The notes beneath the pieces were generated by a model. The model worked only from the letters and a program-made list of their open reading frames with translations. It did no database searches and was not told where the DNA came from. From an uncultured Coriobacteriia bacterium (lineage in GTDB: Bacteria; Actinomycetota; Coriobacteriia; Anaerosomatales; PALSA-660), in the NCBI GenBank assembly GCA_963695385.1, contig OY968780.1, positions 363,339-427,338 of the forward strand: 64,000 nt of DNA, written 5' to 3'. This document shows positions 10,119 to 50,849 of this stretch, piece after piece. Every line of letters starts with the position of its first letter. The stretch's first letter is position 1. Both the position numbers and the translations under genes were made by a program.

Positions 10119-10355
10119 AGACCGGCGGGACCTTCCCGCACCCGGGACGAACGTGGAGTCCTGAGGGCGATGGAAGCCGGAAGTCGCCGCGGCATTGCGA
10201 CCCTCGCGACGGCCGAAACCTGTCTCCCGGGACCTTCTGATAGACTGTCGGGCGCGAGGAGCTGCCGCTCCAGACGGCGCCGCGGACTGCCGTCGGCGCC
10301 CCGCACGCACCGCCGCCACGTTCCCAGCATCGCATTCGAAGGGACCCTGCCGCAG

Positions 10356-11405
10356 ATGGCTTTCAACGACACGTTTCTGCGCGCCTGCAGGCGCGAGCCG
10401 ACCGAGAACACGCCGGTCTGGATGATGCGCCAAGCGGGGCGCTACCTGCCCGAGTACCGCGCCATCCGCGAGAAGCACGACTTCCTGGAGATGTGCAAGA
10501 CGCCCGAACTCGCGGCCGCGGTGACGCTGCAGCCCGTCGACCTCGTGGGTGTGGACGCCGCCATCCTGTTCGCCGACATCCTCCTTCCGCTGGAGGGCAT
10601 GGGTCTTGAGCTCGCGTTCGCCAAGGGCGGCGGGCCCGTCATCGGCAATCCCATCCGCACGGTGGCCGACGTCGGCAAGCTGCGCGTATCCGACCCGCTG
10701 GCTGACACCGGCTATGTCATGGACGCCATAAGGCTGCTCCGCCGGGAACTCGAGGGCAGGGTGCCGCTCATCGGCTTCGCGGGCGCGCCGTTCACGCTCG
10801 CCTCGTACATGATCGAGGGGGGTTCGACGCGCGACTACATCGAGTGCAAGAAGCTCATGTGGTCGGAGCCGGAGGCTTGGGACTCGCTCATGCGCGTCAC
10901 CACCGATACCGTCATCGCGTATCTGAAGGCGCAGGTCGAAGCCGGCGCGCAGGCTGTGCAGGTGTTCGATTCGTGGGTCGGGTTCGTATCTCCGGCCGAC
11001 TACCGCCGCTCGATCCTCCCGCACACCAAGCGTCTGATCGAGGAGGTCTCCACCACCGGTGTGCCCGTGATCAACTTCGCGAACAACGCCTCGGGCATGC
11101 TCGAAGACGTCGCGTCCGCCGGGGGGGACGTCATCGGCTTGGACTGGCGAATAGACATCGACGTGGCGATCGAGCGGCTTGGTGACGGCTTCGCGGTGCA
11201 GGGCAACCTCGATCCGACGTCTCTGTTCGCGCCCCCCGAGACCATCGAGAGACTCGCGGTGGACATCCTGGAGCGGGTCGGGACGCGGCCTGGGCACATA
11301 TTCAACCTGGGGCACGGCATCCACAAGGAGACGAAGCCCGCTCACGCACGCGCGCTTATAGACGCCGTGCACAGTCACTCCGCGCGCATCAGGTCGGCGA
11401 AGTAG
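10356..11405 (+). CDS. hemE: uroporphyrinogen decarboxylase
   Basis: PVWMMRQAGRYLPEYR N-terminal signature. The conserved start is ATG 10356, not ORF-track 10170. Confidence 0.9.
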   Translation: MAFNDTFLRACRREPTENTPVWMMRQAGRYLPEYRAIREKHDFLEMCKTPELAAAVTLQPVDLVGVDAAILFADILLPLEGMGLELAFAKGGGPVIGNPIRTVADVGKLRVSDPLADTGYVMDAIRLLRRELEGRVPLIGFAGAPFTLASYMIEGGSTRDYIECKKLMWSEPEAWDSLMRVTTDTVIAYLKAQVEAGAQAVQVFDSWVGFVSPADYRRSILPHTKRLIEEVSTTGVPVINFANNASGMLEDVASAGGDVIGLDWRIDIDVAIERLGDGFAVQGNLDPTSLFAPPETIERLAVDILERVGTRPGHIFNLGHGIHKETKPAHARALIDAVHSHSARIRSAK

Positions 11406-11407
11406 GC

Positions 11408-12418
11408 GTGGCCGAGACTCCGAACACGGGAGTCCTTCTCACGGCGTTCGGAGGACCAGACTGCCTCGACGCGGTCGCGCCGTTCATGTCGAGCCTCATG
11501 GGGCAGGAGGCGCCCGCCGAAGCCGTCGAATCCGCCAAGCAGCGATATGTGGCGATCGGCGGCTGCTCGCCCCTGCCCGCAATCGCCGAGAGGATAGCCG
11601 CCGCTCTGGAGCGGAGCCTGAACGGACTTCCCGTCGGCGAGGGACGTGCCGGCGAGGGCGAGGGAACGGTCCGCACGCCGGTGGCGCTCGGCATGCGCTA
11701 CTCGCAGCCCAGCATCGGGCAGGGCGTCGCGGACCTGTGCGCGCGGGGCGTAAGGCGCGTCGTGTGGACGAGCCTGTCGCCTTTCGAGTCCCAGGTGAGC
11801 ACGGGCGCGTATCGCAGCGCTGTCGAGTCCGCTTGCGTCGCATGTGGTGTCGAGGTCGTCGAAGCGGATCGCTACTCCTCCGCGGAGCCGTTCACTCGCC
11901 TGCTGGCCGAGGCGTGCATCGAGGCGCTCAACCGTATGCCTGACACTTCGCGCCCCCTGGTCGTGATGACGGCGCACAGCTTGCCTTCGACCGACGAGGG
12001 GGCGACCGTCTACGTCGGGCAACTCACCGCGGTAGCGGCACAGGTGGCGGCGCGGGTCGGGTTGGGTCCCGTGGACGCGGATTTCCTGTCCAGGATGCTG
12101 GAGATCCGCGCCTTCGGCGGGTACGGTCCACACGCCGTGTGGATGCTCGCATACCAGTCCAAGGGCAAGCGCGGCGGGCAGTGGCTCGAGCCCGACCTCG
12201 ACCAGGTGATCGACGCGGCTGCCGGTGTGGGATGCCGGGCCGTGGTGGTCTGCCCGATCGGGTTCGTCACCGACCACCTGGAGACGCTCTACGACCTGGA
12301 CATAGCAGCGGCGGCTCGAGTGACCGGTCACGGGATGACGTTCCTGCGCTCGCGCGTTCCCAACGACGACCCGCTGATGATCGAGGCGCTCGCGCAGGCG
12401 GTCGGGGCGCGCTTGTGA
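11408..12418 (+). CDS. hemH: ferrochelatase (coproporphyrin ferrochelatase type)
   Basis: Contains LLTAFGGP, MTAHSLP and GFVTDHLETLYDLD motifs. GTG start is 2 nt after the hemE stop. Confidence 0.9.
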   Translation: MAETPNTGVLLTAFGGPDCLDAVAPFMSSLMGQEAPAEAVESAKQRYVAIGGCSPLPAIAERIAAALERSLNGLPVGEGRAGEGEGTVRTPVALGMRYSQPSIGQGVADLCARGVRRVVWTSLSPFESQVSTGAYRSAVESACVACGVEVVEADRYSSAEPFTRLLAEACIEALNRMPDTSRPLVVMTAHSLPSTDEGATVYVGQLTAVAAQVAARVGLGPVDADFLSRMLEIRAFGGYGPHAVWMLAYQSKGKRGGQWLEPDLDQVIDAAAGVGCRAVVVCPIGFVTDHLETLYDLDIAAAARVTGHGMTFLRSRVPNDDPLMIEALAQAVGARL

Positions 12419-12470
12419 GGGCGCCATCCGGACGACGCGGCGCATCTCGACCCTCGGGGAGGAACCGCGC

Positions 12471-13946
12471 ATGAGGCGAGTGGTCGTCATCGGCGGCGGG
12501 GTCGCGGGACTGGCCGCGGCGTACAAGGTGCGGCGCGCGGCCGACGAGGGACACGACGTCGCCTTCACTCTGGTCGAGAAGGACTCGCGGCTGGGCGGCA
12601 AGGTGGCCACCGAGAGCGTGGACGACTTCGTGATCGACGGCGGCCCGGATTGCTTTCTGACCAGCAAGCCGGCGGTGCACCGTATCGCCCGGCTCACCGG
12701 CATCGAGGACGACAAGCTGCCCAGCGACGAGTCGCGCAAGGGAACGCTCATCCTGTCCCGCGATCGCCTGCACAGGATGCCCGAGGGCGTGATGATGTTC
12801 GCGCCCACGAAGTTCTGGCCGTTCGCCACCACAAGCCTGTTCTCGCTGCGCGGGAAGGTGCGCATGGGGCTGGACGCGTTCATTCCGAGGAAGCGCGTGG
12901 CCGAGGGCGAGCTCAACGACGAGACCCTCGAGAGCCTGATCGTGAGGCGCATGGGCCGCGAGTGTCTTGACCGCCTGGCCGAGCCTCTGGTCGGGGGAGT
13001 GCACGCCTCCGACCCGGCGACGATGTCTCTGGCGGCAACGTTCCCGAGCCTTCTGGAGATGGAGCAGAGGCACGGCAGCCTGCTGGCCGGCTTTCTGGCC
13101 CAGCGCAAGATGGTCGACGAGATGCGCCGCAAGTACCCCCCAGACCCCCTCAAGCCGCGGACCTTCTTCACGTCCTTCGCGCGCGGGATGGCCGAGCTCC
13201 CCCAAGCCATGTCCGTCTCGGCGGGCGCGGAAGACATGCGCACGGGCGTCTCGGTCGAACGGCTGGAGCGCGCGGGGTCCGGGTGGAGGGTTCACCTGTC
13301 GGATGGTGAGGCGCTCGACGCCGACGCCGTCATAGTGGCGACGGAAGGCTGGGCCGCGGCCAAGCTGCTCGCGCCGGTCGACGCGGACGTCGGCTCAGCT
13401 CTCGAGGAGATCCCATACTCGTCTGCTGCGACGGTGTCCCTTGCATTCGACACGGAGGACGTCGGCTTCGACCTCAACGCGTTCGGCGTGCTGTGCCCCA
13501 TGGCCGAGAAGCGTGCGCTGCTCGCCGCCACCTACTCGTCGACGAAATGGCGGGGACGCGCCCCCGAGGGCAAGACCCTCCTGCGCGGGTTCCTCGGAGG
13601 TCCGCACAACCAGGCGATCATGAAGCGCTCCGACGACGATCTCACGCAGGTGGTGATCTCGGAGATGCGCTCGATCCTTGGGCTGAAGGCGGACCCCTCC
13701 TTCGTCCGGGTGTTCCGCTGGCCCGACGCCATGCCGCAGTACACGATGGGGCATCTCGGCCGCGTTGCCCTGGTCGAGCGCGCGATGGTGGCCACGCCGG
13801 GGCTGGCGGTGGCCGGAGGCGCCTACAGCGGCGTGGGCGTGCCGAACTGCATCGAGACCGGGGAAAAGGCGGTTACCAAGGTACTCGCCGACTTGGGGAT
13901 GGTGCTGGAGGAGGACTTGGGGGAGCCGGAGAAGCGGGCATACTGA
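12471..13946 (+). CDS. hemY: protoporphyrinogen/coproporphyrinogen III oxidase (FAD-dependent, HemY type)
   Basis: N-terminal VVVIGGGVAGLAAAY dinucleotide-binding motif. Gene order hemE-hemH-hemY matches the Bacillus/Actinobacteria operon. Confidence 0.85.
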   Translation: MRRVVVIGGGVAGLAAAYKVRRAADEGHDVAFTLVEKDSRLGGKVATESVDDFVIDGGPDCFLTSKPAVHRIARLTGIEDDKLPSDESRKGTLILSRDRLHRMPEGVMMFAPTKFWPFATTSLFSLRGKVRMGLDAFIPRKRVAEGELNDETLESLIVRRMGRECLDRLAEPLVGGVHASDPATMSLAATFPSLLEMEQRHGSLLAGFLAQRKMVDEMRRKYPPDPLKPRTFFTSFARGMAELPQAMSVSAGAEDMRTGVSVERLERAGSGWRVHLSDGEALDADAVIVATEGWAAAKLLAPVDADVGSALEEIPYSSAATVSLAFDTEDVGFDLNAFGVLCPMAEKRALLAATYSSTKWRGRAPEGKTLLRGFLGGPHNQAIMKRSDDDLTQVVISEMRSILGLKADPSFVRVFRWPDAMPQYTMGHLGRVALVERAMVATPGLAVAGGAYSGVGVPNCIETGEKAVTKVLADLGMVLEEDLGEPEKRAY

Positions 13947-17038: not shown

Positions 17039-17602
17039 CTAGGTCCGACGCGGTCCCTTGGAGAACGTGCGGATCGCCTCGAGCACCTGAGCGTCGGCAG
17101 AATCCCCGACGCGAGGCGTGGGGTGGACACCGTGCTCCCCAAGCACCTCGAGAACCGCCGCCGCGGCCGCCGGAACGGACGCCTCGACGCCTGGAGTCAG
17201 CCCGATCTCGAACGTGGTCATGTCCTCGATCTGGATGCCGATGCACTCGGCCTTAGGCGTGGCGCCGATCAGCATCGCGGCCTGGAGGACGTCCACGAAG
17301 CGGATGTCGTGGAGCGAGTGCATCACCTGGTTGGGCGCCATCTCCTCGGGCGAGAGGCGGACTATCGTGCCGGGTTCCTCGCCGGTGCCGTCCACCGCGT
17401 CGACGACCAGCATGTAGTCGCACTCGCGGAACAGGTGAAGGATGCTCATGCCCATCGTGCCGACATCCAGCACCTTGACGTTGTCGGGGAACTCGAGTGC
17501 GGCCATCAGTGACTCGACGACGCGGACGCCGACACCCTCGTCACGAAGGAGAGGGTTTCCCATCCCCATGACCGTTACGCGCTCGGCGGGCACCGTTACC
17601 AC
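17039..17602 (-). CDS. [NiFe] hydrogenase maturation endopeptidase (HyaD/HybD family)
   Basis: Contains VMGMGNPLLRDEGVGVRVV, then VVDAVD and a later His motif. Overlaps the upstream small-subunit stop by 7 nt. The exact start codon is uncertain (GTG 17602 or a downstream GTG). Confidence 0.85.
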   Translation of the reverse strand: MVTVPAERVTVMGMGNPLLRDEGVGVRVVESLMAALEFPDNVKVLDVGTMGMSILHLFRECDYMLVVDAVDGTGEEPGTIVRLSPEEMAPNQVMHSLHDIRFVDVLQAAMLIGATPKAECIGIQIEDMTTFEIGLTPGVEASVPAAAAAVLEVLGEHGVHPTPRVGDSADAQVLEAIRTFSKGPRRT

Positions 17603-18720
17603 TCGCCCGGGTCTTCGGCGACGGCTGCCTGCACAGGCGCCTCCGCGGTCTCCTCGAGTCGGCCGCGCGCCGTCTCGGCCACGCCGTACAGAGCGAACCC
17701 GCCTGCCACTCCGGCGGCCGAGATGGCCGCGACCGTCTCGGGCTGGAGCCCTGTTCCCCAGAGGCCCGTGCCGATCGCGCGTGTCCTCGACAGGAACGGT
17801 GCGTCGTTATCGACCCAGTTGAGGTTGCCGCACCCGATGCAGGGGGAGCCGGACTCTACGCACCAGCTGGCGCGACGGTTCCAGCGCACCCTCGGACAGT
17901 CGGTGAAGGTCTGCGGGCCCTTGCAGCCCATCTTGTACAGACACCAGCCGTTGACCTCGGCCTGCGTCCCGAACTGCTCGACGAACTCGCCGTTCTCGAA
18001 GTGCCCTCGCCTCGGGCAGTTGTCGTGGATGCTCGAGCCGAAGATCAGAGTCGGACGGTTGTGGTCGTCCATGGCCGGAAGCTTGCCCAGCATCAACACG
18101 TCGATGACCACCGCCACGATCCACTCGGGGTTGACCGGGCAGGTCGGCAGGTTGATGGTCTTGGCCGCAAGCTCGGGCATGAAGTCGAGCACGCCCTTGC
18201 CGCCGGCCGGGTTCGGGTTGGCCCGCACCCACCCTCCGTCGACCGCGCAGGAGCCGACGCACACGACGGCGTCGGCCTTGGGAGCGATCTCTTTGAGGAT
18301 ATCCACGCCCGTCCTGCCGCCGATCCTGAGCGTGTTGCCGCCTTCTCCGGTCATGACGGCGCCCTCGGCGATGAGTATGTAGCCACCATCGGCGACCGTC
18401 TTGGCCATGGCGTCCTCGGCCTGCTTGCCGGCCGCAGCCGATATGGTCTCGATGTAGTTGACCGAGAGCAGATCGAGCACGACCGTGGCCACGTCGGGTG
18501 TGTCGACCTGTGCCAGGGATTCGGTGCAGCCCGTGCACAGTCCCATGTCGAACCATATGGCGGGCTTGAGCTTTGCGCCCTTCTCGACCGCGGAGGCTAT
18601 CTGAGGGACATACATCTCGGACAGACCCAGCAGAGCCGCGACGGACCCGCAGTACTTCATGAAGTCGCGGCGGGACACTCCCCGTGCCGCGAGCAGGTCG
18701 TCGATCCACGGTTCCCGCAC
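17596..18720 (-). CDS. [NiFe]/[NiFeSe] hydrogenase small subunit, paralog 1 (Tat signal, C-terminal TM anchor), with no adjacent large subunit
   Basis: Twin-arginine signal SRRDFMKYCGSVAALLG, Fe-S ligand patterns (CTGCTES, HDNCPRRGHF, CLYKMGCKGP, PCIGC) and a hydrophobic tail. The likely start is GTG 18720, 10 nt after GGGGAGG. The ORF-track ATG 18795 adds 25 unconserved residues. Confidence 0.9.
   Translation of the reverse strand: MREPWIDDLLAARGVSRRDFMKYCGSVAALLGLSEMYVPQIASAVEKGAKLKPAIWFDMGLCTGCTESLAQVDTPDVATVVLDLLSVNYIETISAAAGKQAEDAMAKTVADGGYILIAEGAVMTGEGGNTLRIGGRTGVDILKEIAPKADAVVCVGSCAVDGGWVRANPNPAGGKGVLDFMPELAAKTINLPTCPVNPEWIVAVVIDVLMLGKLPAMDDHNRPTLIFGSSIHDNCPRRGHFENGEFVEQFGTQAEVNGWCLYKMGCKGPQTFTDCPRVRWNRRASWCVESGSPCIGCGNLNWVDNDAPFLSRTRAIGTGLWGTGLQPETVAAISAAGVAGGFALYGVAETARGRLEETAEAPVQAAVAEDPGEW
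17784..18706. repeat. 923-bp direct repeat, copy A (core of small-subunit gene)
   Basis: Aligns base-for-base with 24623-25545 at an offset of 6839. I count 12 mismatches and no indels. Similarity stops abruptly at both ends, inside the coding sequence. Confidence 0.9.
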
Positions 18721-18926
18721 GGACGATCTGCCTCCCCGATATGAGTGGTCTGCCACGAATCGTAACTCATGACATGCGCCACGCCGTGCGCTCATGGCCC
18801 GCCGGTGTCGAATGTCCTGATCCGCACCAGTGGTGGTGGTTCGGCGATGCTAGGCATGGCGGTTGCTCGTAACCCACGCATCAAGGGTCGGCGCCGCCAT
18901 CCGGCCGCAGGAGAGTGGGAGCGAAC

Positions 18927-20576
18927 ATGAGCCGGTCGCATGCGAGGGTCATCTTCATGATCCTGCTGTCCGTCGCCCTCGCCGGCGCGTCGCCGTTATC
19001 GTCATTCGCGGAGGCGGACACGGGATTCGGGCTGATCGCCTCCGCGTCGGTGCGCAGCTCGGCTGTGCGGGCGGCATCGGTGAGTATTCTGACGATCTCG
19101 GCTCCGGTATCGGTTTCGCCGGGTTCGCCGGTGTTGATAGTGGGATCGCTCTTCGAGGACGAGGTCGGCGGCTTTCGACCGGACGTTCAGGAGGTCTTCC
19201 TGGAAGCCTCGCCTGACGGCGTGTCGGGATGGACCGTGGTCGAGAGCACGTGGACAGACACGGAGATAGTGCCGGACAGCTACGGCTTCGTCCTGTATCC
19301 GAGCGGCTCGAGGTACTACCGGGTGCGCTACCCGGGCAGCGCATTTCCCGCGGCGACGAGCGACACGGTTCACGTAGCGGTCGAAGTGGCACCATCCCCG
19401 ACGCCGTCACCCACCCCGCCGCCGACACCGACGCCGACACCGACGCCGACGCCGATGCCGACGCCGACGCCTGCGCCGACACCGACGCCTGCGCCGACAC
19501 CGACGCCTGCGCCGACACCGACGCCGACGCCGACGCCTGCGCCGACACCGACGCCTGCGCCGACACCGACGCCGACACCCGCTCCCACGCCCACGCCGCA
19601 GCCAACACCCACGCCGACGTCTGACCCCACGCCGACGCCCGTCCCGCCCTCTCGCGCGCCCGTGGTCATCACCCTTGAGACCCCGACTTCGCTTATCGTG
19701 CCGGGGGCTTCACCGGTGCTTACGGGCGTAGTGAAGAACGCCTCGACTGGTGGTTCAATCGTTGGGATCCCGGTCGCTTTGCAGACATCTCCCGACGGCG
19801 CCACAGCTTGGATCGCCGTTTCCGAATCCAACAGCGACGTCAACGGTCACGCGTGCGAGGTGACCGTCACGACGAGCGCTCACTTCCGTGCCACCTTCGC
19901 CGGCGACGACGCCCACCTTCCCGCCACCAGCGAGCCGAAGCGGCTGGAAGTGGACAGCTCCGTGTCTTTGACTCTCGGCGCCTCTCAGGTCACTGTGGCG
20001 CCGGGGGGCAGCACGACCCTGTCGGGCTCGATCGCCGACGCCTCAGGCGCCCCGCTGACAGGTCCACGGGTCTCCTTGCAGGCGTCGCCTGACGGGATCG
20101 CCGGCTGGATCCCGCTGGGCACGCCGGTGACGGCCACGGGCGGCACGCTGACCTTCTCGATCCGGCCTTCCGCCACCGCCTTCTATCGCGCCGACTTCGC
20201 CACGGACGGGATCTATGCGGCCGCCACCAGCGCCGCGGTGCGGGTGGCGGTCTCGACGTCCAAGCCGGCATCCGCGCTCACGATCGCGACGAATCGCACG
20301 CTTCTCAGGATCGGCAAGGCAGCCACCATTTCCGGGCGCGCGACGCCCAGAGCCGGAATGGTCGGCGCGAGGCTGCGGCTTCTGGTGAAGAAGGCCCGCA
20401 GCTCGCGCTGGACCCTTCTGACGCGGCCGACCATCCGGGGAACCGCCGCGTCCTGGTCGTACCGTCTGACGCTGCGCAGGGGGTCGCCGAAGGGCACGCA
20501 TCAGTTCAAGGTCGTCTACGACGGCGGCGCCTTCCGGTCCTCCTCCTCGCGCGTGATCAAGATCGCCCTGCGCTAG
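18927..20576 (+). CDS. secreted surface protein with four repeated beta-sandwich-like modules and a Pro/Thr-rich linker
   Basis: Signal peptide ([30 protein letters not shown]). Four roughly 95-aa modules share ...SPDG..GW......... and F/YR..F/Y.....A.TS..V.V patterns. A PTPTPA-type linker is also present. Confidence 0.7.
19398..19648 (+). repeat. coding low-complexity tandem repeat (18-nt unit ccgacaccgacgcctgcg, encoding PTPTPA)
   Basis: Read directly from the sequence. It encodes [69 protein letters not shown]. Confidence 0.85.
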
Positions 20577-21919
20577 CCCGGGTGAAGAATGTTCGGAGCG
20601 GGGACGAGCCCGTCGTAGCAGTCGTGTCGAGTCAGGGGAACGCCGCTGCGGCCGTCATCGGCGCGCGCGAGCAGGGTCTGGTACACGGTGGTGAATCCCG
20701 CGGAGAAGCCGTAGGCGCACGCCGACATGTAGAGGCGCCAGATCCGGTAGGTGAGTTCATCCGATGCATCGCACGCGGCATCGCGCTGCCGCTCCAGGTT
20801 CGAGACCCAATGCCTCAGCGTGAGGGCGTAGTGCTCGCGCAGGCTTTCCACGTCGCGGACGTCGAACCCCGCCGTCTCGGCGGCGGCCAGCGTGGTGTGT
20901 ATCGGTACGAGCTCGCCATCGGGGAACACGTAGCGCTGCCAGAAGGTGGGGCCGGTCTCCGTCGGCACTCGACCGGCCGACTGGCGCACGGGGCTGTTCG
21001 CGATGCCGTGGTTCATGAACAGCCCGCCCGGCCGCAGCAGCCGGAATGCCCGGTCGAAGTAGTCGCCCAGCTTCGCTGCGCCGACGTGCTCGAACATGCC
21101 GACGCTGACGATCTTGTCGTAGCAGCCCCAGTCCGTCACCTCGCGGTAGTCCCGGACCTCGGCACGGCACCGATCGGCGAGCCCCGCGCGCGAGAAGCGC
21201 TCATTGGCGAGTCTCGCCTGCGGATCGCTGAGCGTGACGCCGAGCGCATCGGCACCGTATCTGGACGCGGCATGCATCATCAGCCCGCCCCATCCGCATC
21301 CGACGTCCAGCAGGCGGTCCCCCTCGCGCAGTCGCAGCTTCCGGCAGATCAGGTCCAGCTTCTGCTCTTGGGCGGTATCCAGGTCATCGCCGGCATCCTG
21401 GAAATAGGCGCACGAATAGACCATCCTCTGGTCCAGGAACAGCCGGTAGAAGTCGTTCGACACGTCGTAGTGATATGAGACGGCCGTCCGATCGCGACGT
21501 AGGGAATGGGTGGTACCGTGCATCTCCGCCGCCCGGTCGAGGCGGCTGGTCCCGGAGGATGGAAGTCTCGCCACGCGCTGAAGGGCGTTGACCGCGGTCC
21601 GCAGATCCCTGCGCCGCAGCAGCGCGCGGTCCGCCACCGCGATCAGGCTCTCGACGTCACCTTCCACATCGATGTCATCGGTGAGATACGCTTCTCCGAC
21701 CGTGAGGGTGCCGGGATTGAGGAGGATCCGTTTCACCACGGAGGGGTTTCTCAGGACCAGGGTGAACCTTGTGCCCATGCCCGGGTCGGGCCCCAAGGTG
21801 CTCCCGTCCCAAAGGCGCACGCAGAAGTCGAACGGGTGGAGGTCGGAAAGCACCAAGTCCAGGAGCTCGATCGTGGAGCGAGCGTGTCGATCGAGTTCGG
21901 GCGCGAGAGCCGTTCGCAT
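20573..21919 (-). CDS. cfa: cyclopropane-fatty-acyl-phospholipid synthase family SAM methyltransferase
   Basis: Contains [22 protein letters not shown], the SAM motif [10 protein letters not shown] and SVGMFEHVG. Its stop overlaps the stop of the convergent surface-protein gene by 4 nt. Confidence 0.85.
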
Positions 21920-22059
21920 CTGTCATCCCCCGTCCGCGCGTGTTGCCGCGACTCGTCACCGACGACTACGGAGTACCCGCGATGGACCGTTCAGCCACGA
22001 CGAACCGCGAGGCCATCCTGCGAGCGGCCCGAACGCCGGGTGAGCGGCGCAGGACGCGC

Positions 22060-22091
22060 AAAGGCCCGGGGCACGCGGCCCCGGGCCTTTT
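22060..22091. terminator. bidirectional hairpin terminator between the cytochrome b gene and the cfa promoter region
   Basis: A 12-bp perfect stem (AAAGGCCCGGGG / CCCCGGGCCTTT) with a 7-nt loop. A/T runs flank the stem on both strands. Confidence 0.5.
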
Positions 22092-22135
22092 CGCGTCCTG
22101 CGCTGTCATTGATGCACAGCGGCGCCTGGATGAGT

Positions 22136-22786
22136 CTAGCCTTCGTCCTTCGCGGGCGTCTCGATCCAGGCAAACATCAGCTTCGTCGGAGCGACTCCGT
22201 GGATGTTGGCCAGGTACACGTGCACCATGGTGAACAGGATCAGGATCCACATGCCGAAGTAGTGGATCAGGCGCATCGTCATCAGACCCCCCACGGCCTC
22301 CAGCCCCGCGTTGAAGAACGGCCAGATCGACCACTGCGTGGCTGGTCCGTAGATCGCGAATCCGGTGTAAGCCATCAGGTAGGTGATCGGGACCGTGGCC
22401 AGATAAGAGATCTTCTGGAGTGGCCCGTACTTACCCGATATGACGTGCTCCTTGCGCAGGAACAGGTAGAACTTCACGTTCTCCCAGAACTGGTGTCGGT
22501 TCTCCTCCTGCGGCAACCAGTTCTTGACGTCGACCTCCTTCTCGCGCGATCCGAGAAGGACCGCGTCCTTCACCCAGAACGACAGGATGATCCGCGCTGT
22601 CAGGTTCACCACGACCAGATACATCAGCACGAAGTGGATGGCGCGGGCTCCCTGCATGGTCCATGCGAAGAACGGATAGTGGATGTAGAAGCCCGTGAAG
22701 GCGAGTCCGATGATGCAGATCAGGTTCACCCAGTGGATCATCACGAATACCAGCGGGTGCGCCTCACGATAGTGTCCGTGGGACAT
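22136..22786 (-). CDS. Ni/Fe-hydrogenase b-type cytochrome subunit (HyaC-like)
   Basis: Four TM helices with conserved His residues (HWVNL, RAIHFV, RLIHYF, MVHVYL). ATG 22786 lies 5 nt after the extended large-subunit stop and is preceded by AGGTGA. The ORF-track start at TTG 22873 is only the alternative frame of the large-subunit tail. Confidence 0.85.
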   Translation of the reverse strand: MSHGHYREAHPLVFVMIHWVNLICIIGLAFTGFYIHYPFFAWTMQGARAIHFVLMYLVVVNLTARIILSFWVKDAVLLGSREKEVDVKNWLPQEENRHQFWENVKFYLFLRKEHVISGKYGPLQKISYLATVPITYLMAYTGFAIYGPATQWSIWPFFNAGLEAVGGLMTMRLIHYFGMWILILFTMVHVYLANIHGVAPTKLMFAWIETPAKDEG

Positions 22787-22791
22787 GTCGA

Positions 22792-24426
22792 TCACCTGCC
22801 TGCGGGCTTCGACATCACGAACGAGGACTTCTTTGTCTTGGGTTCTATCAACTGAACCCCGCAGCCGATTCAAGGATCGAAGCTGTGGATGATACGCAGG
22901 GCCTCGAGGGGCTTCTCGACGTCCGCCACCGGCGCGCCCACGAGCGCTTCCTCCAGAGGTCCTCGGACGCCCTTGGCGTCACGGGGACAACAGTCCCAAG
23001 TAGAGGGCGAGACAACCTGGTAGTTGGCGATCTTCCCATCCTTGATGTCGATCCAGTGGGCCACCGACCCGCGGGGCGCCTCCCACAGGCCGGCCCCGGC
23101 GCCGTTCGCCTCGACAGGCTCGGTGAAGAACTTCGCCTCGCCACCCTTGATCGCCGAGACGAGCTCGCCTATCCACTTTCCCATCTCATCGGCGATGAAC
23201 TTGGTCTCCAGGTTGCGTGCTGCGACGCGGCCCAACAGGGAGATCAGGACTTCCGGCTTCCCGGCCACTCCCAGCGCTGAGAGCGTGGTGTCGATCAGGG
23301 CCGTGACCTCGGGCACGCCGGAGAGGTACGCAACCAGCATGCGGGAGAGGGGGCCGACCTCCATCGGCTTCTCATTGAGGCGCGGCGCCTTGATCCACGA
23401 GTACTGAGCGGCCGTGTCATACGAGGTGAACTTCGCCTGGGTCTGTCCTTGGGCGGGATTGAGGCCCGAGGGGGAGGAGTACCAAGAGCGCTCGACGTAC
23501 TCCTTGACCTGCTTGACGTCGGGGTCGACGACCTGCAGCTTCCCGTCGAAGATGGCTCCTCGAGGCAGCACGCGCTTCTTGGGGTCGAGACTCTGAGACT
23601 CGAACACGCCCCAGGACAGGAAGTTCTTGCAGCCCTGCCCGTAGCCCGCGGCGTCGATGTAGTAAGGGGCGATCGCCAAGGTGTCGGGGATCATCGTGTT
23701 GGTGACCCAGTCGCTGACGCGTTGCCATCTGTAGAGGACATCATCGAGCTTCTCTTCCGTGGGCATCCAGGCGGTGCCCCCGGGCAGAGAGGTCATGAAA
23801 TGCGGGAACTTGCCGCCCATCACGGCGATGATCGCGGCCGCCTCGGCCTGCATCTCGAGCGCCTCGAGGTAGTGAGCCACGGCGATGAGGTTCAGCTCCG
23901 GGGGGAGCTTCATCGCGGGATGACCCCAGTAACCGTTCGTGAAGATGGACAGCTGCCCGCCGTCGACGAACGCCTTCACTCGCCTCTGGATCGCGCCGAA
24001 GTCCGCCGTGCTCGTTCCGGCCTTCTCGGCCAAGGCGTACGTGTCGGCGATGTTGGCCTTCAACGCGGAGACGACGTCGACGTAGTCCAGCGCAGTGAGC
24101 GTGTAGAACCACAGGATGTGGCTGTGGAGGGACTCGGCGCCCTCGATGATGTTGCGCACGATGCGGGCACCGTCGGGCGGGGTCAGTTTGAGCGCGTCCT
24201 CCGTCGCCTTGGTGGAGGCATGCCCGTGCGGTATGGGACACACGCCGCATATGCGTTGCGCCACGTAGAAGGCGTCCGCGGGTGCTCGACCCTTCAGCAC
24301 GGTCTCCATGCCGCGGTAGAGGCTGCCCGAGGACCAGGCGTCGGTGATCTTGCCGTCGACCACTTCGCATTCGACGCGAAGGTGGCCCTCGATCCTGGTG
24401 ACGGGGTCGATGATCGCTCTGGCCAT
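22792..24426 (-). CDS. [NiFeSe] hydrogenase large subunit, with TGA 22872-22870 read as selenocysteine (544 codons)
   Basis: The N-terminal RICGVCPIPH (RxCGxCxxxH) motif is present. The C-terminus reads HSFDP-TGA-IGCGVQ, so TGA replaces the first Cys of DPCxxCxxH. The frame then stays open for 25 more codons to TGA 22794-22792. ATG 24426 overlaps the small-subunit stop (TGATG). Confidence 0.8.
22840..22859 (-). promoter_or_regulatory. candidate bacterial SECIS hairpin
   Basis: On the minus strand, GGGUUC-AGUUGAUA-GAACCC forms a 6-bp stem with an 8-nt loop containing GU. It begins 10 nt 3' of the in-frame UGA. Confidence 0.45.
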
Positions 24427-25568
24427 CAGATATCGCCTCCCTTCGTGCTCTTGTGTTTCTTGTCCCAGGCCTTCTCGGTCTCGATCGGCGGACCCGACGT
24501 ACGGCCCGCGGCGGCAGATGCGATGCCATGTACCGCCAGACCGACGACCGCCGCACCACCGACTACGACCCCGACGGTCTCCGGCCGTACTCCGCCAAGA
24601 CCCGGCAAGCTGACATTGGTCATCCTCGACAGGAACGGTGCGTCGTTGTCGACCCAGTTGAGGTTGCCGCACCCGATGCAGGGGGAGCCGGACTCGACGC
24701 ACCAGCTGGCGCGGCGGTTCCAGCGCACCCTCGGGCAGTCGGTGAAGGTCTGCGGGCCCTTGCAGCCCATCTTGTAGAGACACCAGCCGTTGACCTCGGC
24801 CTGCGTCCCGAACTGCTCGACGAACTCGCCGTTCTCGAAGTGCCCTCGCCTCGGGCAGTTGTCGTGGATGCTCGAGCCGAAGATCAGGGTCGGACGGTTG
24901 TGGTCGTCCATGGCCGGCAGCTTGCCCAGCATCAACACGTCGATGACCACCGCCACGATCCACTCGGGGTTGACCGGGCAGGTCGGCAGGTTGATGGTCT
25001 TGGCCGCAAGCTCGGGCATGAAGTCGAGCACGCCCTTGCCGCCGGCCGGGTTCGGGTTGGCCCGCACCCACCCTCCGTCGACCGCGCAGGAGCCGACGCA
25101 CACGACGGCGTCGGCCTTGGGAGCGATCTCTTTGAGGATATCCACGCCCGTCCTGCCGCCGATCCTGAGCGTGTTGCCGCCTTCTCCGGTCATGACGGCG
25201 CCCTCGGCGATGAGTATGTAGCCGCCATCGGCGACCGTCTTGGCCATGGCGTCCTCGGCCTGCTTGCCGGCCGCCGCCGATATGGTCTCGATGTAGTTGA
25301 CCGAGAGCAGATCGAGCACGACCGTGGCCACGTCGGGTGTGTCGACCTGTGCCAGGGACTCGGTGCAGCCCGTGCACAGTCCCATGTCGAACCATATGGC
25401 GGGCTTGAGCCTGGCGCCCTTCTCGACCGCGGAGGCTATCTGAGGGACATACATCTCGGACAGACCCAGCAGAGCCGCGACGGACCCGCAGTACTTCATG
25501 AAGTCGCGGCGGGACACTCCCCGTGCCGCGAGCAGGTCGTCGATCTCGTCACGCGTTCCCTTCGCCAT
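24426..25568 (-). CDS. [NiFe]/[NiFeSe] hydrogenase small subunit, paralog 2 (Tat signal, C-terminal TM anchor), in an operon with the large subunit and cytochrome b
   Basis: ATG 25568 lies 8 nt after AAGGAGG. The Tat motif is SRRDFMKY. The core is identical to paralog 1 except for one K/R change, while the N-terminal 8 aa and the C-terminal roughly 60 aa differ. Confidence 0.9.
   Translation of the reverse strand: MAKGTRDEIDDLLAARGVSRRDFMKYCGSVAALLGLSEMYVPQIASAVEKGARLKPAIWFDMGLCTGCTESLAQVDTPDVATVVLDLLSVNYIETISAAAGKQAEDAMAKTVADGGYILIAEGAVMTGEGGNTLRIGGRTGVDILKEIAPKADAVVCVGSCAVDGGWVRANPNPAGGKGVLDFMPELAAKTINLPTCPVNPEWIVAVVIDVLMLGKLPAMDDHNRPTLIFGSSIHDNCPRRGHFENGEFVEQFGTQAEVNGWCLYKMGCKGPQTFTDCPRVRWNRRASWCVESGSPCIGCGNLNWVDNDAPFLSRMTNVSLPGLGGVRPETVGVVVGGAAVVGLAVHGIASAAAGRTSGPPIETEKAWDKKHKSTKGGDI
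24623..25545. repeat. 923-bp direct repeat, copy B (core of small-subunit gene)
   Basis: See copy A (17784-18706). There are 12 mismatches, 11 synonymous and 1 K/R. Confidence 0.9.
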
Positions 25569-46430: not shown

Positions 46431-46580
46431 TCTCGTGGCCTAGCGTCCATGGCAGGTCTCGGACTATCATCGCCGAAATGTTACGGAGGTCTCCACGCAT
46501 CCGCGAGGGTCGGCTTTGCCATACCCGCGCATCCGCCTGGAGCGTACACGCGACTTTGGAGGTCGAAGAGGGGTGAGCGA

Positions 46581-47888
46581 GTGACGGTACGCACATTCCG
46601 AGGCGGCGTGCATCCTCCGGACCACAAGGAGGCCACCGCGGGCCGGGCGACTGAGCTGGGTCCCATGGCCGCGCAGTTGGTCGTGCCGATGAGCCAGCAC
46701 CTTGGCGCGCCGTGCCGACCGACCGTGGAGAAGGGTGAGCTGGTGCAACGAGGCCAGGTCATCGGCGATGTCGATGCGATGGTCAGCGCGCCGGTCCACA
46801 GCCCCGTCAACGGCGAGGTGGTCGCCGTGGGCAAGGTGCTGACCGCCGGCGGCATGCGAGTCGATGCCGTGACCATCGCACCGGACCCCGAGCAGGACTT
46901 CGAGCAGTTCGTGCCGGTGCAGGCCGCCGACGAAAGTGTCCCCGCTCTTGCGCGCGCCGCCGGCATCGTAGGTATGGGGGGCGCCGCCTTCCCGGCCGCG
47001 GTGAAGCTCCTTCCGCCCAAGCACTTCACGATCGACACCGTCATCCTCAACGGGTGCGAATGCGAACTCTTCCTGACCTGTGACCATCGGGTGATGATCG
47101 AGCAGACGGCGCAGGTGATGGCGGGCGCGCGTCACATCGCGACGGCCGTCGGCGCGAAGGACGTCTTCGTCGCGGTTGAGGACAACAAACCCGACGCGAT
47201 CGACGCACTGCGCAAGGCCGCGGCCGGCACCGGTATCGAGATCGTGCCGCTGCGGACGAGGTACCCGCAGGGCGCCGAGAAGCAACTCATCTTCGCGGTG
47301 ACCGGCAGGGCGGTTCCGAGGGGGCAGCTGCCGGCGTCGGTCGGTGTGCTGGTCCACAACGTCGGCACCGCCGTGGCGATAACAGACGCCGTGGAGCGGC
47401 ACAAGCCGTTGATGGAGCGGGTGGTCACGGTCTCGGGCCAGGTCGCCAAGCCTGGCAACTACCGGGTCCTGATCGGTACCCCGATCTCCGCGCTGATCGA
47501 AGCGGCCGGCGGGTTGGTCGAGCCGGTAGGGCGGGTGATCGCCGGCGGACCAATGACCGGCGCGCCGCTCGCGACTCTGGACGTTCCGGTCGTGAAGGGG
47601 ACATCCGGGGTCGTCGCTTTGACCCCGGCGCAATCCGCGCCCCTGGTCGACGGCGATCAGCCCTGCATCCGCTGCGGGAGTTGCGTCGAGGTCTGTCCGA
47701 TGACTCTGCACCCGTTCGCGATCGCGTCCTACGCGGATCGGCGCATGTGGGACGGGGTCGAGCGCTTCCATGCTCTCGACTGCATCGAGTGCGGTTGCTG
47801 CAGCTACATGTGCCCCACTCGGCGTCCGCTCGTCCAGCTCATCAAGACGGGCAAGGCCGCCCTCATGCTGAAGGGGGCGAAGAAGTGA
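46581..47888 (+). CDS. rnfC: Rnf electron-transport complex subunit C
   Basis: Contains FRGGVHPP, GMGGAAFP and two CxxCxxCxxxCP motifs. GTG 46581 follows a GAGGGG-type RBS. ORF-track 46449 adds non-conserved residues. Confidence 0.9.
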   Translation: MTVRTFRGGVHPPDHKEATAGRATELGPMAAQLVVPMSQHLGAPCRPTVEKGELVQRGQVIGDVDAMVSAPVHSPVNGEVVAVGKVLTAGGMRVDAVTIAPDPEQDFEQFVPVQAADESVPALARAAGIVGMGGAAFPAAVKLLPPKHFTIDTVILNGCECELFLTCDHRVMIEQTAQVMAGARHIATAVGAKDVFVAVEDNKPDAIDALRKAAAGTGIEIVPLRTRYPQGAEKQLIFAVTGRAVPRGQLPASVGVLVHNVGTAVAITDAVERHKPLMERVVTVSGQVAKPGNYRVLIGTPISALIEAAGGLVEPVGRVIAGGPMTGAPLATLDVPVVKGTSGVVALTPAQSAPLVDGDQPCIRCGSCVEVCPMTLHPFAIASYADRRMWDGVERFHALDCIECGCCSYMCPTRRPLVQLIKTGKAALMLKGAKK

Positions 47889-48949
47889 GCGACGAGAAGA
47901 AGGAAGCGCCGGTCGAGCAGCGCATGCCGGTCGTCGCACCGGCCCCGCATGTCGCGGCCGAGCAGAGCAGCCGCACGATCATGCTCTGGGTCATCGGCGC
48001 TCTCACCCCCGCCACGCTCTGGGGAATGTGGTGCTTCATAGCGGCCGATGCGAGCCTGGGCATACGGTCCCTGGTGACTCTGGTCGTCGGGATCGGCTCG
48101 TGCGTTCTGACGGAGGCTCTCTGGAACATCTTGCGCAAGGAGCGGCAGACCATCGGCGATCTCACCGCCGTCATCACGGGTCTGCTGCTGGCGATGTCGG
48201 TTCCGCCCCTCACGCCATGGTGGATCACGATGTTCGGCGGCATAGTCGCCATCGCGCTGGCGAAGATGCTCTTCGGCGGCCTCGGGTTCAACCTGTTCAA
48301 CCCGGCGCTGGTGGGTCGTGCGGTCGTCATGATGTCGTGGCTCGGCGTCATGTCCGACGTGAAGCCCTACCCCGGCGGATGGTTCCGCGCCCTGTCCATG
48401 CCCGCGGCGGGCAAGTTCGACGCCATCAGCGGAGCCACGCGGCTGGCCATCGCCTCGGCCGACCGGGCCGCCCTGGGAGCGTATCACTACGATCTTTCGG
48501 CCCAATACGGTCCGCTGCTGTTCAAGAACCTCGAGGGGTCGCTCGGCGAGGTCTCGGGCGCTCTGCTGATCCTCGGCGGGCTCGTTCTGATCGGCAAGCA
48601 GATCATCGACTGGCGAATCCCCGTCGGCTACATCGGGTCGGTCGCGCTCCTTTCCTGGGCATTCGGGTCCGACCCGATCTTCAACGTGCTCGCCGGCGGG
48701 GTCCTGCTCGGCGCGTTCTTCATGGCGACGGACTACGTCTCCTCATGCGTCACCAGGAACGGGAGACTCGTGTTCGGCATCGGGTGCGGCGTGTTCAACA
48801 TCGTCACGAGGTTCTTCGGCCCGATGCCAGAGACGACCACCTTCGCGATCCTGTTCATGAACGGCCTGGCACCTCTCATCGACCGCATGTTCATGCCCAA
48901 GCCGTTCGGCTGGATGAAGCCCGGGAAGGAGGCGAAGGCGAATGCTTAA
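47885..48949 (+). CDS. rnfD: Rnf complex subunit D
   Basis: Polytopic membrane protein containing FNPALVGR and SGATRL. GTG overlaps the rnfC stop. Confidence 0.85.
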   Translation: MSDEKKEAPVEQRMPVVAPAPHVAAEQSSRTIMLWVIGALTPATLWGMWCFIAADASLGIRSLVTLVVGIGSCVLTEALWNILRKERQTIGDLTAVITGLLLAMSVPPLTPWWITMFGGIVAIALAKMLFGGLGFNLFNPALVGRAVVMMSWLGVMSDVKPYPGGWFRALSMPAAGKFDAISGATRLAIASADRAALGAYHYDLSAQYGPLLFKNLEGSLGEVSGALLILGGLVLIGKQIIDWRIPVGYIGSVALLSWAFGSDPIFNVLAGGVLLGAFFMATDYVSSCVTRNGRLVFGIGCGVFNIVTRFFGPMPETTTFAILFMNGLAPLIDRMFMPKPFGWMKPGKEAKANA

Positions 48950-49559
48950 GTTCTACTTCAAGCTGGGCATCCCGGTGCTTGTGACGTGCATCGTCGCCTC
49001 CGCCGGCCTCGCTGTGACCTATGCGGTGACCAAGGACCGCATCGCGGAGCAGGACCGTCTGGCCAAGGAGAGATCGCTGCGTGTCGTGCTCGCCGATGTC
49101 GGAGCGAAGGGCACCTTCGAGCAGATCAAGGACGCGGCGGTTCTCAAGAAGGCGGCCGTCGCGGCCGGCGAGACCCCCGTCTACGCCCTCTACCGGGCGC
49201 TTGACGGCAGCGGTGGTCAGATCGGATGGGGCGTCCTGGTCGGACCCCGCGGCTACGGGGGTCCCATATCCATGGCGGTAGGTGTGGATAGGAACGGGAA
49301 AGTCACCGGCGCCACAGTAGTGTCCATGAACGAGACCCCGGGTCTCGGAACCAAGGTCAACACCGAGATGGTCAAGGGCAAGCCCTGGCTGCAGGGCTTC
49401 GTGGGAGTCGATGTGGTCGAGGGCGATGCGCTGGTGGCCGAGGTGGACACGATCACAGGAGCGACCAAGTCGTCCCGAGGCGTCAGGAACGGCGTTCAGG
49501 CGGCAGCGAACATCTACGCACAAGCGCTGGCCGGCTTGGGAGAGGTGAGCGGCAAGTGA
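48942..49559 (+). CDS. rnfG: Rnf complex subunit G (FMN-binding)
   Basis: An N-terminal TM helix, ETPGLG, and the flavinylation-site motif TGATKSS. Confidence 0.85.
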   Translation: MLKFYFKLGIPVLVTCIVASAGLAVTYAVTKDRIAEQDRLAKERSLRVVLADVGAKGTFEQIKDAAVLKKAAVAAGETPVYALYRALDGSGGQIGWGVLVGPRGYGGPISMAVGVDRNGKVTGATVVSMNETPGLGTKVNTEMVKGKPWLQGFVGVDVVEGDALVAEVDTITGATKSSRGVRNGVQAAANIYAQALAGLGEVSGK

Positions 49560-50215
49560 ATGAATGGATGCGCGTCTTCCGCAGCGGGATATCGCTGGAG
49601 AACCCGCTGACCGTGCTGATGATCGGTCTGTGTTCCACCCTCGCCGTGTCGTCGAAGCTCGAGGGCTCCCTGTTCATGGGGATCGCGGTCATCTTCGTGC
49701 TCGTCATGAGCAACGTTCTGATCTCGGCCACACGCAAGTTCATCCCGGACGAGGTCCGGATCCCGATCTTCATCGTGATCATCGCGTCGTTCGTCACGAT
49801 CGTCGACCTGGTGATGAAGGCGTTCCTGCCCAGCGTGTACGCCTTCCTCGGGGTGTGGATCCCCCTCATCGTCGTCAACTGCATCGTCTTGGGACGCGCG
49901 GAGGCCTTCGCCTACCACAACACGATCTGGATCTCCGTCGCAGACGGCATCGGGATGGGGATCGGATACACCATCATCATCGCGGGACTCGCCGCGTTCC
50001 GGGAGCTCTTCGGCACGGGCCAGATCGTGTTTCTCAACGCCACACTGATATCGCTGCCTGCCTTCTACAAACCCCCGAACATCCTGATGCTCTTCCCGGG
50101 CGCCTTCATTCTCTTCGGACTGATCGTCGCGGCATCGCATGCGCTCAATCGCAGGAGTCGGGCGAAAGAGGCCGCCCAGGCGGCCGCCCTCAAGATGAGG
50201 ACGGAGGCGGCCTGA
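49556..50215 (+). CDS. rnfE: Rnf complex subunit E
   Basis: Contains LENP......GLCSTLAV and IPLIVVNCIVLGRAE. Confidence 0.9.
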   Translation: MNEWMRVFRSGISLENPLTVLMIGLCSTLAVSSKLEGSLFMGIAVIFVLVMSNVLISATRKFIPDEVRIPIFIVIIASFVTIVDLVMKAFLPSVYAFLGVWIPLIVVNCIVLGRAEAFAYHNTIWISVADGIGMGIGYTIIIAGLAAFRELFGTGQIVFLNATLISLPAFYKPPNILMLFPGAFILFGLIVAASHALNRRSRAKEAAQAAALKMRTEAA

Positions 50216-50216
50216 G

Positions 50217-50837: not shown

Positions 50838-50849
50838 GGGAGGCGCACA

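Follow-up and report, generated by a model that had tools for sequence, protein, structure and literature searches.

Here, we describe a Coriobacteriia-type (OPB41/Anaerosomatales-like) membrane-bound [NiFeSe] uptake hydrogenase encoded in a 64,000-nucleotide stretch of DNA from an uncultured Coriobacteriia bacterium (contig OY968780.1; hereafter the window), whose locus carries two genes for the small subunit and one for the large subunit (LSU). SSU2 (24426..25568, minus strand), of the type that we call SSU-A, precedes the large-subunit gene, and SSU1 (17596..18720, minus strand; 374 residues), of the type that we call SSU-B, precedes the gene for the maturation protease. The two proteins have nearly the same core and entirely different C-terminal tails. 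We propose that the locus derives from a two-module operon containing an old SSU-B paralogue, that the core of this paralogue was overwritten by SSU-A sequence, that a neighbouring radical-SAM gene was replaced, and that one large subunit is served by two alternative membrane anchors; taken as a whole, we consider this explanation probable. The anatomy, synteny, paralogy, conversion and selection described below are observed; the pairing of SSU1 with the same large subunit, and the route its electrons would take, we infer.

The two small-subunit genes share a 923-bp block (18706-17784 against 25545-24623) that is 98.7% identical and has sharp edges and unrelated flanks; we take 17784..18706 (minus strand, 923 bp) as the gene-conversion tract in SSU1 and 24623..25545 (minus strand, 923 bp) as its donor copy in SSU2. 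Eleven of the 12 differences in the block are synonymous and fall at third codon positions, and one changes an amino acid (K/R), leaving the core proteins 99.7% identical; at least 11 synonymous changes in 12 would be expected under neutrality with P ~4e-6. When polarised by orthologues, 8-10 of the differences prove to be synonymous G/C to A/T changes that arose in SSU1, and K to R arose in SSU2; every derived change in SSU1 is synonymous. Outside the block, the two proteins differ in about eight N-terminal residues and in the entire tail, which reads ...PETVGVVVGGAAVVGLAVHGIASAAAGRTSGPPIETEKAWDKKHKSTKGGDI in SSU2 and ...PETVAAISAAGVAGGFALYGVAETARGRLEETAEAPVQAAVAEDPGEW in SSU1. An earlier reading of this DNA from sequence alone (the sequence-only reading) had suggested, as one of two possible readings, that the two small subunits have an identical catalytic core and different membrane-anchor tails. 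As peptides the cores are indistinguishable, and the tail-specific peptides TRAIGTGLWGTGLQPETVAAISAAGVAGGFALYGVAETAR and MTNVSLPGLGGVRPETVGVVVGGAAVVGLAVHGIASAAAGR separate the two small subunits.

Both genes encode recognizable hydrogenase small subunits. SSU2, which starts MAKGT, is a Tat-exported canonical small subunit (PF01058 and PF14720), and SSU1 matches TIGR00391 (305 bits) and TIGR01409 as well as PF01058 and PF14720; the Tat motif SRRDFMK is present in both. SSU1 starts at a GTG codon with a GGAGG Shine-Dalgarno sequence 10 nt upstream. Its intact reading frame, Shine-Dalgarno sequence, Tat motif and synonymous-only derived changes, together with its position adjoining an essential protease gene, point to SSU1 being a functional gene. 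At 10 of the 11 synonymous sites SSU1 carries A/T where SSU2 carries G/C, and outgroups mostly agree with SSU2. This AT-biased, one-sided drift suggests weaker codon selection on SSU1 or lower expression, and it would fit the placement of SSU1 in a read-through accessory module behind a hairpin (see below). The block also forms a pair of 923-bp direct repeats 6839 bp apart, and recombination between them would delete the large-subunit, cytochrome b, cfa and surface-protein genes; what would remain is a hybrid small subunit joined to the protease unit, so that the locus contains a built-in route to hydrogenase loss.

The tail of SSU2 is of the canonical kind. It matches the orthologous SSU-A tails of related loci L002 and L005 and has a C-terminal transmembrane helix with the conserved histidine, followed by a KGGDI end. 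Tail-A can be aligned residue for residue to the tail of E. coli HyaA in PDB 4GD3 (tvGl...vGVHavASAvdqR...PTETE), including VH.[IV]ASA and P.ETE, and because 4GD3 is the structure of Hyd-1 with its cytochrome b, we identify tail-A as the canonical anchor. Tail-B of SSU1 (62 residues; 17599..17783, minus strand) comprises a linker, a hydrophobic helix VAAISAAGVAGGFALYGVA, an ETARGRL motif and an acidic end. Compared with a canonical tail docking on cytochrome b, which has a transmembrane histidine, an ASA...GR motif and a basic P.ETE...KGGDK end, it is of another kind: FALYGVAETARGRL precedes the acidic end, with no histidine and no basic end.

Tail-B is found well beyond the window. It is homologous to the SSU-B tails in loci L022, L089, L092, L098 and L100 and in 19 database clusters, and the small-subunit genes that adjoin the protease gene all carry it. 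With a profile built from four full-length B sequences, tail-B was found in 20 of the best 120 small-subunit clusters, which were the ones examined. Searching 50%-identity representatives by HMMER with the tail (68 residues) returned only two spurious repetitive proteins, presumably because SSU-B is clustered with other small subunits at 50%; a profile of the C-terminal 100 residues returned only 6 fragments, and the full-length B profile performed better. The tail-B consensus is ...PG[IV]xG[LVI][KR]PE[NV].A....AAG.AGAFA.[WY]GV[VA]ETARGR[LM] followed by the acidic end, with AGAFA[LIVA][YW]GV[AV]ETARGRL as a shorter form, and the helix position that holds histidine in 100/100 A-type tails holds tyrosine or tryptophan in 20/20 B-type tails. 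Its hydrophobic stretch spans 19 residues with a Kyte-Doolittle value of 1.5-1.7 (1.72 in the window), and AlphaFold2, run on a 28-sequence alignment, predicts tail-B as one long helix (residues 327-358) at a pLDDT of 51-77 per 10-residue block, within an SSU1 model that is poor overall (pLDDT 59). The net charge after the helix is -1 to -5 in tail-B and +2/+3 in tail-A. Pairwise dN/dS lies at 0.10-0.42 for B tails and, for A tails, at 0.05-0.48 except for one of the 21 pairs (0.80); both tails are under purifying selection. We also considered a sortase-type LPxTG signal in the tails and rejected it by eye, as the sequence is PETV without TG. Some SSU-B copies look damaged: in L026 (486-1607) the C-terminal half is fused to an unrelated 230-residue N-terminus, L027 (3-510) and L088 (596-1698) are frameshifted, and the database protein P0126 stops before the transmembrane helix.

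Where both genes are intact on one contig, core identity between A and B is no more than about 61% (60.7% in L098 and 62.2% in L100), and the paralogy is therefore old. The diverged B cores nevertheless retain the Tat motif and every Fe-S Cys/His motif. In a simple neighbour-joining tree of the cores, computed without support values, A and B form deep clades, with 16 tail-B proteins making up the B clade. Four tail-B proteins fall instead inside one A subclade, beside the A copies of their own or a close genome: SSU1 of the window (W_SSU1), L022_B, L089_B and P0133_B. Core identity is 99.7% between the two window proteins (W_SSU1 and W_SSU2), 95.5% between P0133_B and P0138_A and 88% between L089_B and P0138_A. 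Within L089, the A and B genes are 88% identical across the last 263 nt of the core; in L022, 78 of the 79 available SSU-A core nucleotides match L022_B, and divergence then sets in at the APFL|tail junction, as it does in the window. L022 and L089 are sister lineages at about 95% nucleotide identity, and a 90-nt segment of L022_B is 96% identical to the L089 A copy and 80% identical to L089_B, a split that marks it as a fresh conversion patch.

These patterns indicate that the near-identity of the window cores reflects gene conversion of an old paralogue rather than a new duplication. SSU1 is then a chimera, with the locus and tail of B and a core of A. Such overwriting of the B core by A sequence has occurred more than once in this sublineage, each tract stopping at the tail. 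A recent tandem or segmental duplicate was considered and rejected, since tail-B orthologues precede the protease gene in at least six other lineages and the core clades are deep. The natural A-core/B-tail chimeras in the window, in L022/L089 and in P0133 are in effect tail swaps made by evolution, and they suggest that the tail alone may carry the specificity.

To place the window among its relatives, we compared 100 loci reached from protease homologues, of which 87 were annotated by tblastn with the window proteins and the loci fetched later were read from precomputed Pfam gene tables; we define the clade as those loci whose protease is at least 51% identical to that of the window. The relatives are mostly metagenomic contigs, some of them frameshifted, and a scan of a genome collection with the protease found one distant relative only. 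In the clade, SSU-A, the large subunit with selenocysteine (Sec) and cytochrome b usually come first, then a conserved hairpin, and after it a HemN-like radical-SAM gene and the protease. The flanks are collinear between the window and its relatives, with genes for T2SSE/response regulator, TRAM methyltransferase, cytochrome b5, Crp, HAD and DUF2249 on one side of the operon and transketolase, IMPase and haem-synthesis genes on the other. Directly upstream of the protease gene lies a 438-443-residue radical-SAM protein in 21 distinct loci, cytochrome b in four (L001, L023, L030, L033), the large subunit in one (L015), and a second small-subunit gene in the window, L022, L026/L027, L088, L089, L092, L098 and L100. 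In L015 (2-945), the protease gene is directly 3' of the Sec large-subunit gene, with neither a cytochrome b nor a radical-SAM gene between them. The radical-SAM protein is HemN-like and scores 485 bits with NF006385, the model of the "coproporphyrinogen III oxidase family" (cutoff 355); it is encoded at 8606-9922 in L002, 8586-9908 in L005 and 8612-9931 in L098, and in about 20 other loci, and it may supply haem for cytochrome b. Thus, the expectation of the sequence-only reading, taken from hyaABCD, that the protease gene should directly follow cytochrome b does not fit this clade, where the HemN-like gene normally occupies that place.

Two relatives contain the full set of six genes on one contig (L098, 25 kb; L100, 21 kb): SSU-A, the large subunit with its TGA codon, cytochrome b, the radical-SAM gene, SSU-B and the protease. 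The L022 and L089 contigs run from the 3' end of SSU-A to the protease, and L088 and L092 show the radical-SAM gene, SSU-B and the protease. SSU-B is found in a minority of relatives, roughly 10-15% of lineages in a sampling that was partly targeted. The L022 and L089 contigs begin inside SSU-A (1-84 and 1-455), 84 and about 265 nt ahead of the core/tail junction. These starts are consistent with assembly breaks at the A/B repeat, so the arrangement with two small subunits is probably under-counted in short-read metagenomes.

What sets the window apart is the pair of genes between cytochrome b and SSU1. At this position, the window alone has a cyclopropane-fatty-acyl-phospholipid synthase gene, cfa (20573..21919, minus strand; PF02353, 311 bits), and a gene for a secreted surface protein with a PT-rich repeat and an Ig-like domain (18915..20576, plus strand), convergent with cfa and divergent from SSU1; neither occurs there in any of the 87 related loci annotated by tblastn. 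We found no remnant of the radical-SAM gene by tblastn in 17.0-22.2 kb and no copy of it in the whole window. The radical-SAM gene has been lost from this locus and its slot taken by cfa and the surface-protein gene, an arrangement unique to this genome. The sequence-only reading had called the wedged genes foreign-looking, and only their positional novelty stands: GC is 0.665 for cfa and 0.691 for the surface-protein gene against 0.671 for the window, GC3 is 0.84 and 0.82, and compositional foreignness was therefore rejected. No direct or inverted repeats flank the insertion, and neither a target-site duplication nor a mobile-element signature was found. The comparison with relatives that the sequence-only reading had called for sorts the novel from the shared: cfa and the surface-protein gene appear in none of the other loci, and a tail-B small-subunit gene before the protease recurs. 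The same reading had offered an insertion or duplication that split an ancestral operon; the insertion part survives, with cfa and the surface-protein gene standing where relatives have the radical-SAM gene, and the duplication part fails, as the gene before the protease is the old tail-B paralogue also seen in L022, L089, L088, L092, L098 and L100.

The hairpin that follows cytochrome b is older than these genes. It had been placed at 22060-22091 as a strong terminator; it is real, but it is larger than that (22047..22103, minus strand, GC-rich) and has no U tract. Its inverted repeat has 26-nt arms (22047-22072 and 22078-22103) that are 96% complementary, and for the 96 nt around it (22040-22135) the folding energy is -63 kcal/mol (z = -7.0); our terminator scan missed it because of the absent U tract. 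A perfect, GC-rich hairpin with the same CCCGGGG...CCCCGGG core lies 45-60 nt past cytochrome b in 6/6 relatives tested (L002, L005, L089, L095, L098, L100), within 141-nt stretches with z of -3.5 to -5.6. When the spacer between cytochrome b and cfa and the sequence upstream of SSU1 were compared with relatives by blastn, the hairpin core alone matched. Since all six have it, the hairpin is ancestral, predates the cfa insertion and is no marker of insertion. It is probably a terminator or attenuator between the structural genes and the accessory module, and most likely would mark off the structural module, expressed at a high level, from an accessory module (radical-SAM gene, SSU-B, protease) reached by read-through.

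We therefore picture the clade operon as a structural module (SSU-A, Sec large subunit, cytochrome b) and an accessory module (HemN-like radical-SAM gene, optional SSU-B, protease) that would be separated by the hairpin, with SSU-B as an old paralogue that keeps its Tat signal and Fe-S ligands and bears a different, conserved C-terminal membrane helix. Two events would then have shaped the window: gene conversion from SSU-A overwrote the SSU-B core to give the A-core/B-tail chimera, and replacement of the radical-SAM gene by cfa and the surface-protein gene left SSU-B and the protease as a separate, tightly coupled unit. The large subunit, after nickel insertion and C-terminal cleavage by the protease, would bind either small subunit and be exported by the Tat pathway. 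The isoform with tail-A would dock on cytochrome b and pass electrons from H2 to menaquinone, and the isoform with tail-B, having no histidine and no basic end, would be anchored without coupling to cytochrome b or would be anchored to another partner. No second large subunit is encoded in the window or in the +/-10-kb related loci, each locus having one. Repeated homogenisation of the cores is what one would expect if both small subunits fit the same large subunit, and could also be a passive effect of proximity. Two alternative anchors for one large subunit is the best-supported reading and fits the comparative data: each locus has one large subunit, selection preserves both tails, and the cores are homogenised time and again with the tails retained. 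Its more specific form, in which the C-terminal helix is the sole functional difference between two small subunits sharing one Sec large subunit and the ETARGRL tail leads to another partner or leaves the enzyme uncoupled, we offer only tentatively, as a possibility with somewhat less than even chances.

Several observations weigh against this proposal. Most relatives, among them the two closest (L002 and L005), have no SSU-B, which is to that extent dispensable; the copies in L026, L027, L088 and P0126 look damaged, with decay and assembly error inseparable; gene conversion alone can keep a copy looking intact; a charge of -5 after the tail-B helix of the window fits the positive-inside rule less well than the +2 of tail-A; a scan for sigma-70-like promoters upstream of SSU1 found none; and the search for large subunits covers 64 kb of a 2.67-Mb genome, so that a second one elsewhere is possible. 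Part of this would suit an SSU-B that is decaying or redundant, contributes nothing to the enzyme and looks intact because SSU-A repairs it by conversion, as would the AT-biased derived synonymous changes in SSU1 with the weaker codon selection that they suggest. We think such decay unlikely, given that the tail, which is never converted, has kept a dN/dS of 0.10-0.42 over deep lineages, that unconverted B cores preserve their Fe-S Cys/His motifs and Tat signal at 61% identity to A, and that SSU1 has acquired no non-synonymous derived change since conversion. The two small subunits might instead work side by side, in an asymmetric supercomplex, (A·L)(B·L)·cytochrome b, whose tails occupy non-equivalent positions of one enzyme. 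The crystal complex of E. coli Hyd-1 with HyaC reportedly has a 2:1 stoichiometry. Both small-subunit genes share an operon with a single large subunit and a single cytochrome b, concerted evolution of their cores fits two subunits that bind the same partner, and the HyaA tail to which tail-A aligns comes from a structure of Hyd-1 bound to cytochrome b (4GD3); that most relatives work without SSU-B, and that SSU-B lies past the hairpin in a module of presumably low expression, which disfavours 1:1 stoichiometry, makes this arrangement rather unlikely.

The remaining alternatives concern the origin and partner of SSU1. If a fragment of SSU2 had recently been copied, along with foreign DNA, into the junction between cytochrome b and protease, leaving an orphan that is probably useless, one would expect the 98.7% identical block with its sharp edges, and the restriction of cfa and the surface-protein gene to this one genome would follow. 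Such an origin is very improbable, however: it does not account for tail-B before the protease in L022, L089, L088, L092, L098 and L100 or for A/B cores only about 61% identical in unconverted genomes, no target-site duplication or mobile-element signature was found, and it would need an internal fragment to have joined, in the right reading frame, a functional start codon on one side and a conserved transmembrane tail on the other. SSU1 might also partner another large subunit encoded elsewhere, the visible sequence being 64 kb of the 2.67-Mb genome. We judge this quite improbable, because the SSU1 core has been replaced by an SSU-A core, which co-evolves with the local large subunit, because neither the window nor the +/-10-kb related loci encode a second one, and because cultured Anaerosomatales are reported to have one group 1i enzyme, with a group 3b enzyme in one strain (PMC9686372). 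Finally, repeats of about 0.9 kb do break assemblies, as the L022 and L089 contigs that begin inside SSU-A illustrate, and one small-subunit gene could in principle have been wrongly resolved into two. With four distinct in-frame flanks, 12 fixed differences between the copies and the same architecture in independent assemblies, and because both exact proteins are recorded on one 2,668,373-bp contig (SSU1 as P0129), an assembly artefact is hardly credible.

The large subunit itself is a [NiFeSe] protein of 544 residues (22792..24426, minus strand; PF00374, 564 bits). It contains the group 1 motifs RICGVCPIPH near the N-terminus and DP-U-IGCGVQ near the C-terminus, and an in-frame TGA at 22872-22870 encodes Sec within a C-terminus that reads HSFDP-U-IGCGVQ followed by a 19-residue extension. 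TGA at the position of the fourth nickel ligand and the downstream frame (...GCGV[HQ][VL]IEPKT.K.SFVMSKP.GR*) are kept in 21/21 distinct clade sequences, and the codon is TGC or TGT in relatives that are less than about 60% identical. A SECIS-like hairpin, GGGGUUC-N6-GAACCC (22840..22859, minus strand), begins 11 nt past the UGA, so that in-frame UGA, read-through frame and downstream stem-loop are all present. The hairpin is conserved in 21 loci, with an RNAalifold consensus stem of 7 bp and weak covariation, and taken alone it is no more stable than shuffled sequence; an Rfam scan of the locus gave no SECIS match and no other match, and neither sel genes nor tRNA-Sec lie in the 64-kb window. 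A HysAB-type (group 1a) [NiFeSe] identity was rejected, as all three NCBIfam Hys models score below cutoff (HysA 423 against 780, HysB 218 against 470, NiFeSe protease 109 against 190). At codon 22846-22848, glutamine replaces the usual histidine that ends the nickel-binding motif (DPUxGCGVQ), just before the endopeptidase cleavage site; L002, L005, L022, L089, L095 and L097 have the same glutamine, and L010, L013, L016, L021, L024, L098, L100 and others have histidine. For annotation, the consequence of the TGA codon is that gene callers truncate this selenoprotein to about 518 residues.

The locus combines features of several known hydrogenases. Like E. coli Hyd-1 (hyaABCDEF) and Wolinella succinogenes HydABC-HydD, it encodes a Tat-exported, tail-anchored small subunit, a large subunit, a b-type cytochrome and a HyaD-type protease, and the transmembrane histidine of tail-A is shared with the E. 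coli HyaA tail; those operons differ in having one small subunit, Cys in place of Sec, no radical-SAM gene and the protease right after cytochrome b. In W. succinogenes, the tail histidine (HydA His305) has a role in quinone coupling. The Desulfovibrio HysAB enzymes (group 1a) similarly have Sec in place of the nickel-ligating Cys of the C-terminal motif (DPUxxC), but they are lipoproteins or soluble, whereas the window enzyme is linked to cytochrome b and anchored by its tail. Organisms with multiple isoenzymes, such as Desulfovibrio (Hyn-1/Hyn-2/Hys) and E. coli (Hyd-1/Hyd-2), also use different small subunits for different electron-transfer partners, yet each of those small subunits has its own large subunit and operon; in the window, two stand in one operon with apparently one large subunit. 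The concerted evolution of tufA/tufB provides a parallel for the cores, with near-identical paralogues and tracts that end where homology ends, although here conversion is confined to one sublineage of a deeply diverged pair and yields a domain-level chimera of A core and B tail.

Among the closest known enzymes are those of cultured Anaerosomatales. Anaerosoma tenue and Parvivirga hydrogeniphila have a group 1i, Coriobacteriia-type respiratory [NiFe] hydrogenase, the cultured strains having one such enzyme and one strain also a cytoplasmic group 3b enzyme (PMC9686372). The window shares with them a high-GC, OPB41/Anaerosomatales-like context and a cluster of large subunit, small subunit, cytochrome b and protease; that report lists these four genes only (PMC9686372), and Sec, the HemN-like radical-SAM gene and the second small subunit are found here. 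The closest database matches are annotated as Coriobacteriia metagenome-assembled genomes (MAGs), and we infer assignment to HydDB subgroup 1i (Coriobacteriia-type) from these Coriobacteriia-annotated relatives and from the Anaerosomatales report (PMC9686372). In the literature searched, no group 1 operon was found described with a second small subunit that has a variant tail.

Tail-mediated coupling of uptake hydrogenases to a membrane partner is, to our knowledge, known from few proteobacterial models only. A second small subunit that is encoded in the operon and differs essentially in its tail provides a direct handle on such coupling: with cores 99.7% identical in protein, any difference between the isoforms in localisation, partner or acceptor must map to about 60 residues. 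The question also concerns the way in which H2-oxidising Coriobacteriia of the subsurface (OPB41/Anaerosomatales) pass electrons on to sulfur compounds or Fe(III). As regards annotation, the clade operon is one of six genes, including the HemN-like radical-SAM gene, and assemblies tend to break at the small-subunit repeat.

The genes of the locus were called from six-frame open reading frames (ORFs) with Pfam and NCBIfam, which confirmed every named gene and bore out the gene order of the sequence-only reading throughout. The hydrogenase b-type cytochrome subunit (22136..22786, minus strand) scores 92 bits with PF01292, over cutoff, and 115 bits with TIGR02125, slightly below the cutoff of 121.5. 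The HyaD/HybD-type maturation endopeptidase (17039..17593, minus strand) scores 98 bits with PF01750 and 133 bits with TIGR00072 (cutoff 47). The cluster thus encodes both a b-type cytochrome and a HyaD/HybD endopeptidase, and its small subunits have a twin-arginine signal and Fe-S ligand motifs, as in group 1 enzymes. Two tight junctions are as previously described: SSU2 and the large subunit overlap by 1 nt (TGATG), the latter starting at the A of the SSU2 stop codon, and 5 nt separate the large-subunit stop from the cytochrome b ATG. A 7-nt overlap of SSU1 with the protease gene holds only if GTG 17602 is taken as the protease start; the more likely start is GTG 17593, with 2 nt between the two genes, favoured by a database entry (P0001, 184 aa) and by the MxxERITVMG consensus of 33 homologues.

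The secreted surface protein has a signal-peptide-like N-terminus and a weak Big_3_5 match; tandem units of 12/18 nt at 19354-19681 encode its (PTPTPA)n linker, and the antisense frames there yield long spurious ORFs. No hyp, sel or Tat genes were seen among the scanned ORFs of the window. Haem-synthesis genes adjoin the locus at 10119-13946 (URO-D and a HemY-like amine oxidase) and are syntenic in relatives, which also have a ferrochelatase gene. About 20 kb from the hydrogenase, at 46431-51761, the window encodes an Rnf-type complex with an RnfC-like protein, an FMN_bind subunit, an Rnf-Nqr membrane subunit and an RnfB-like ferredoxin.

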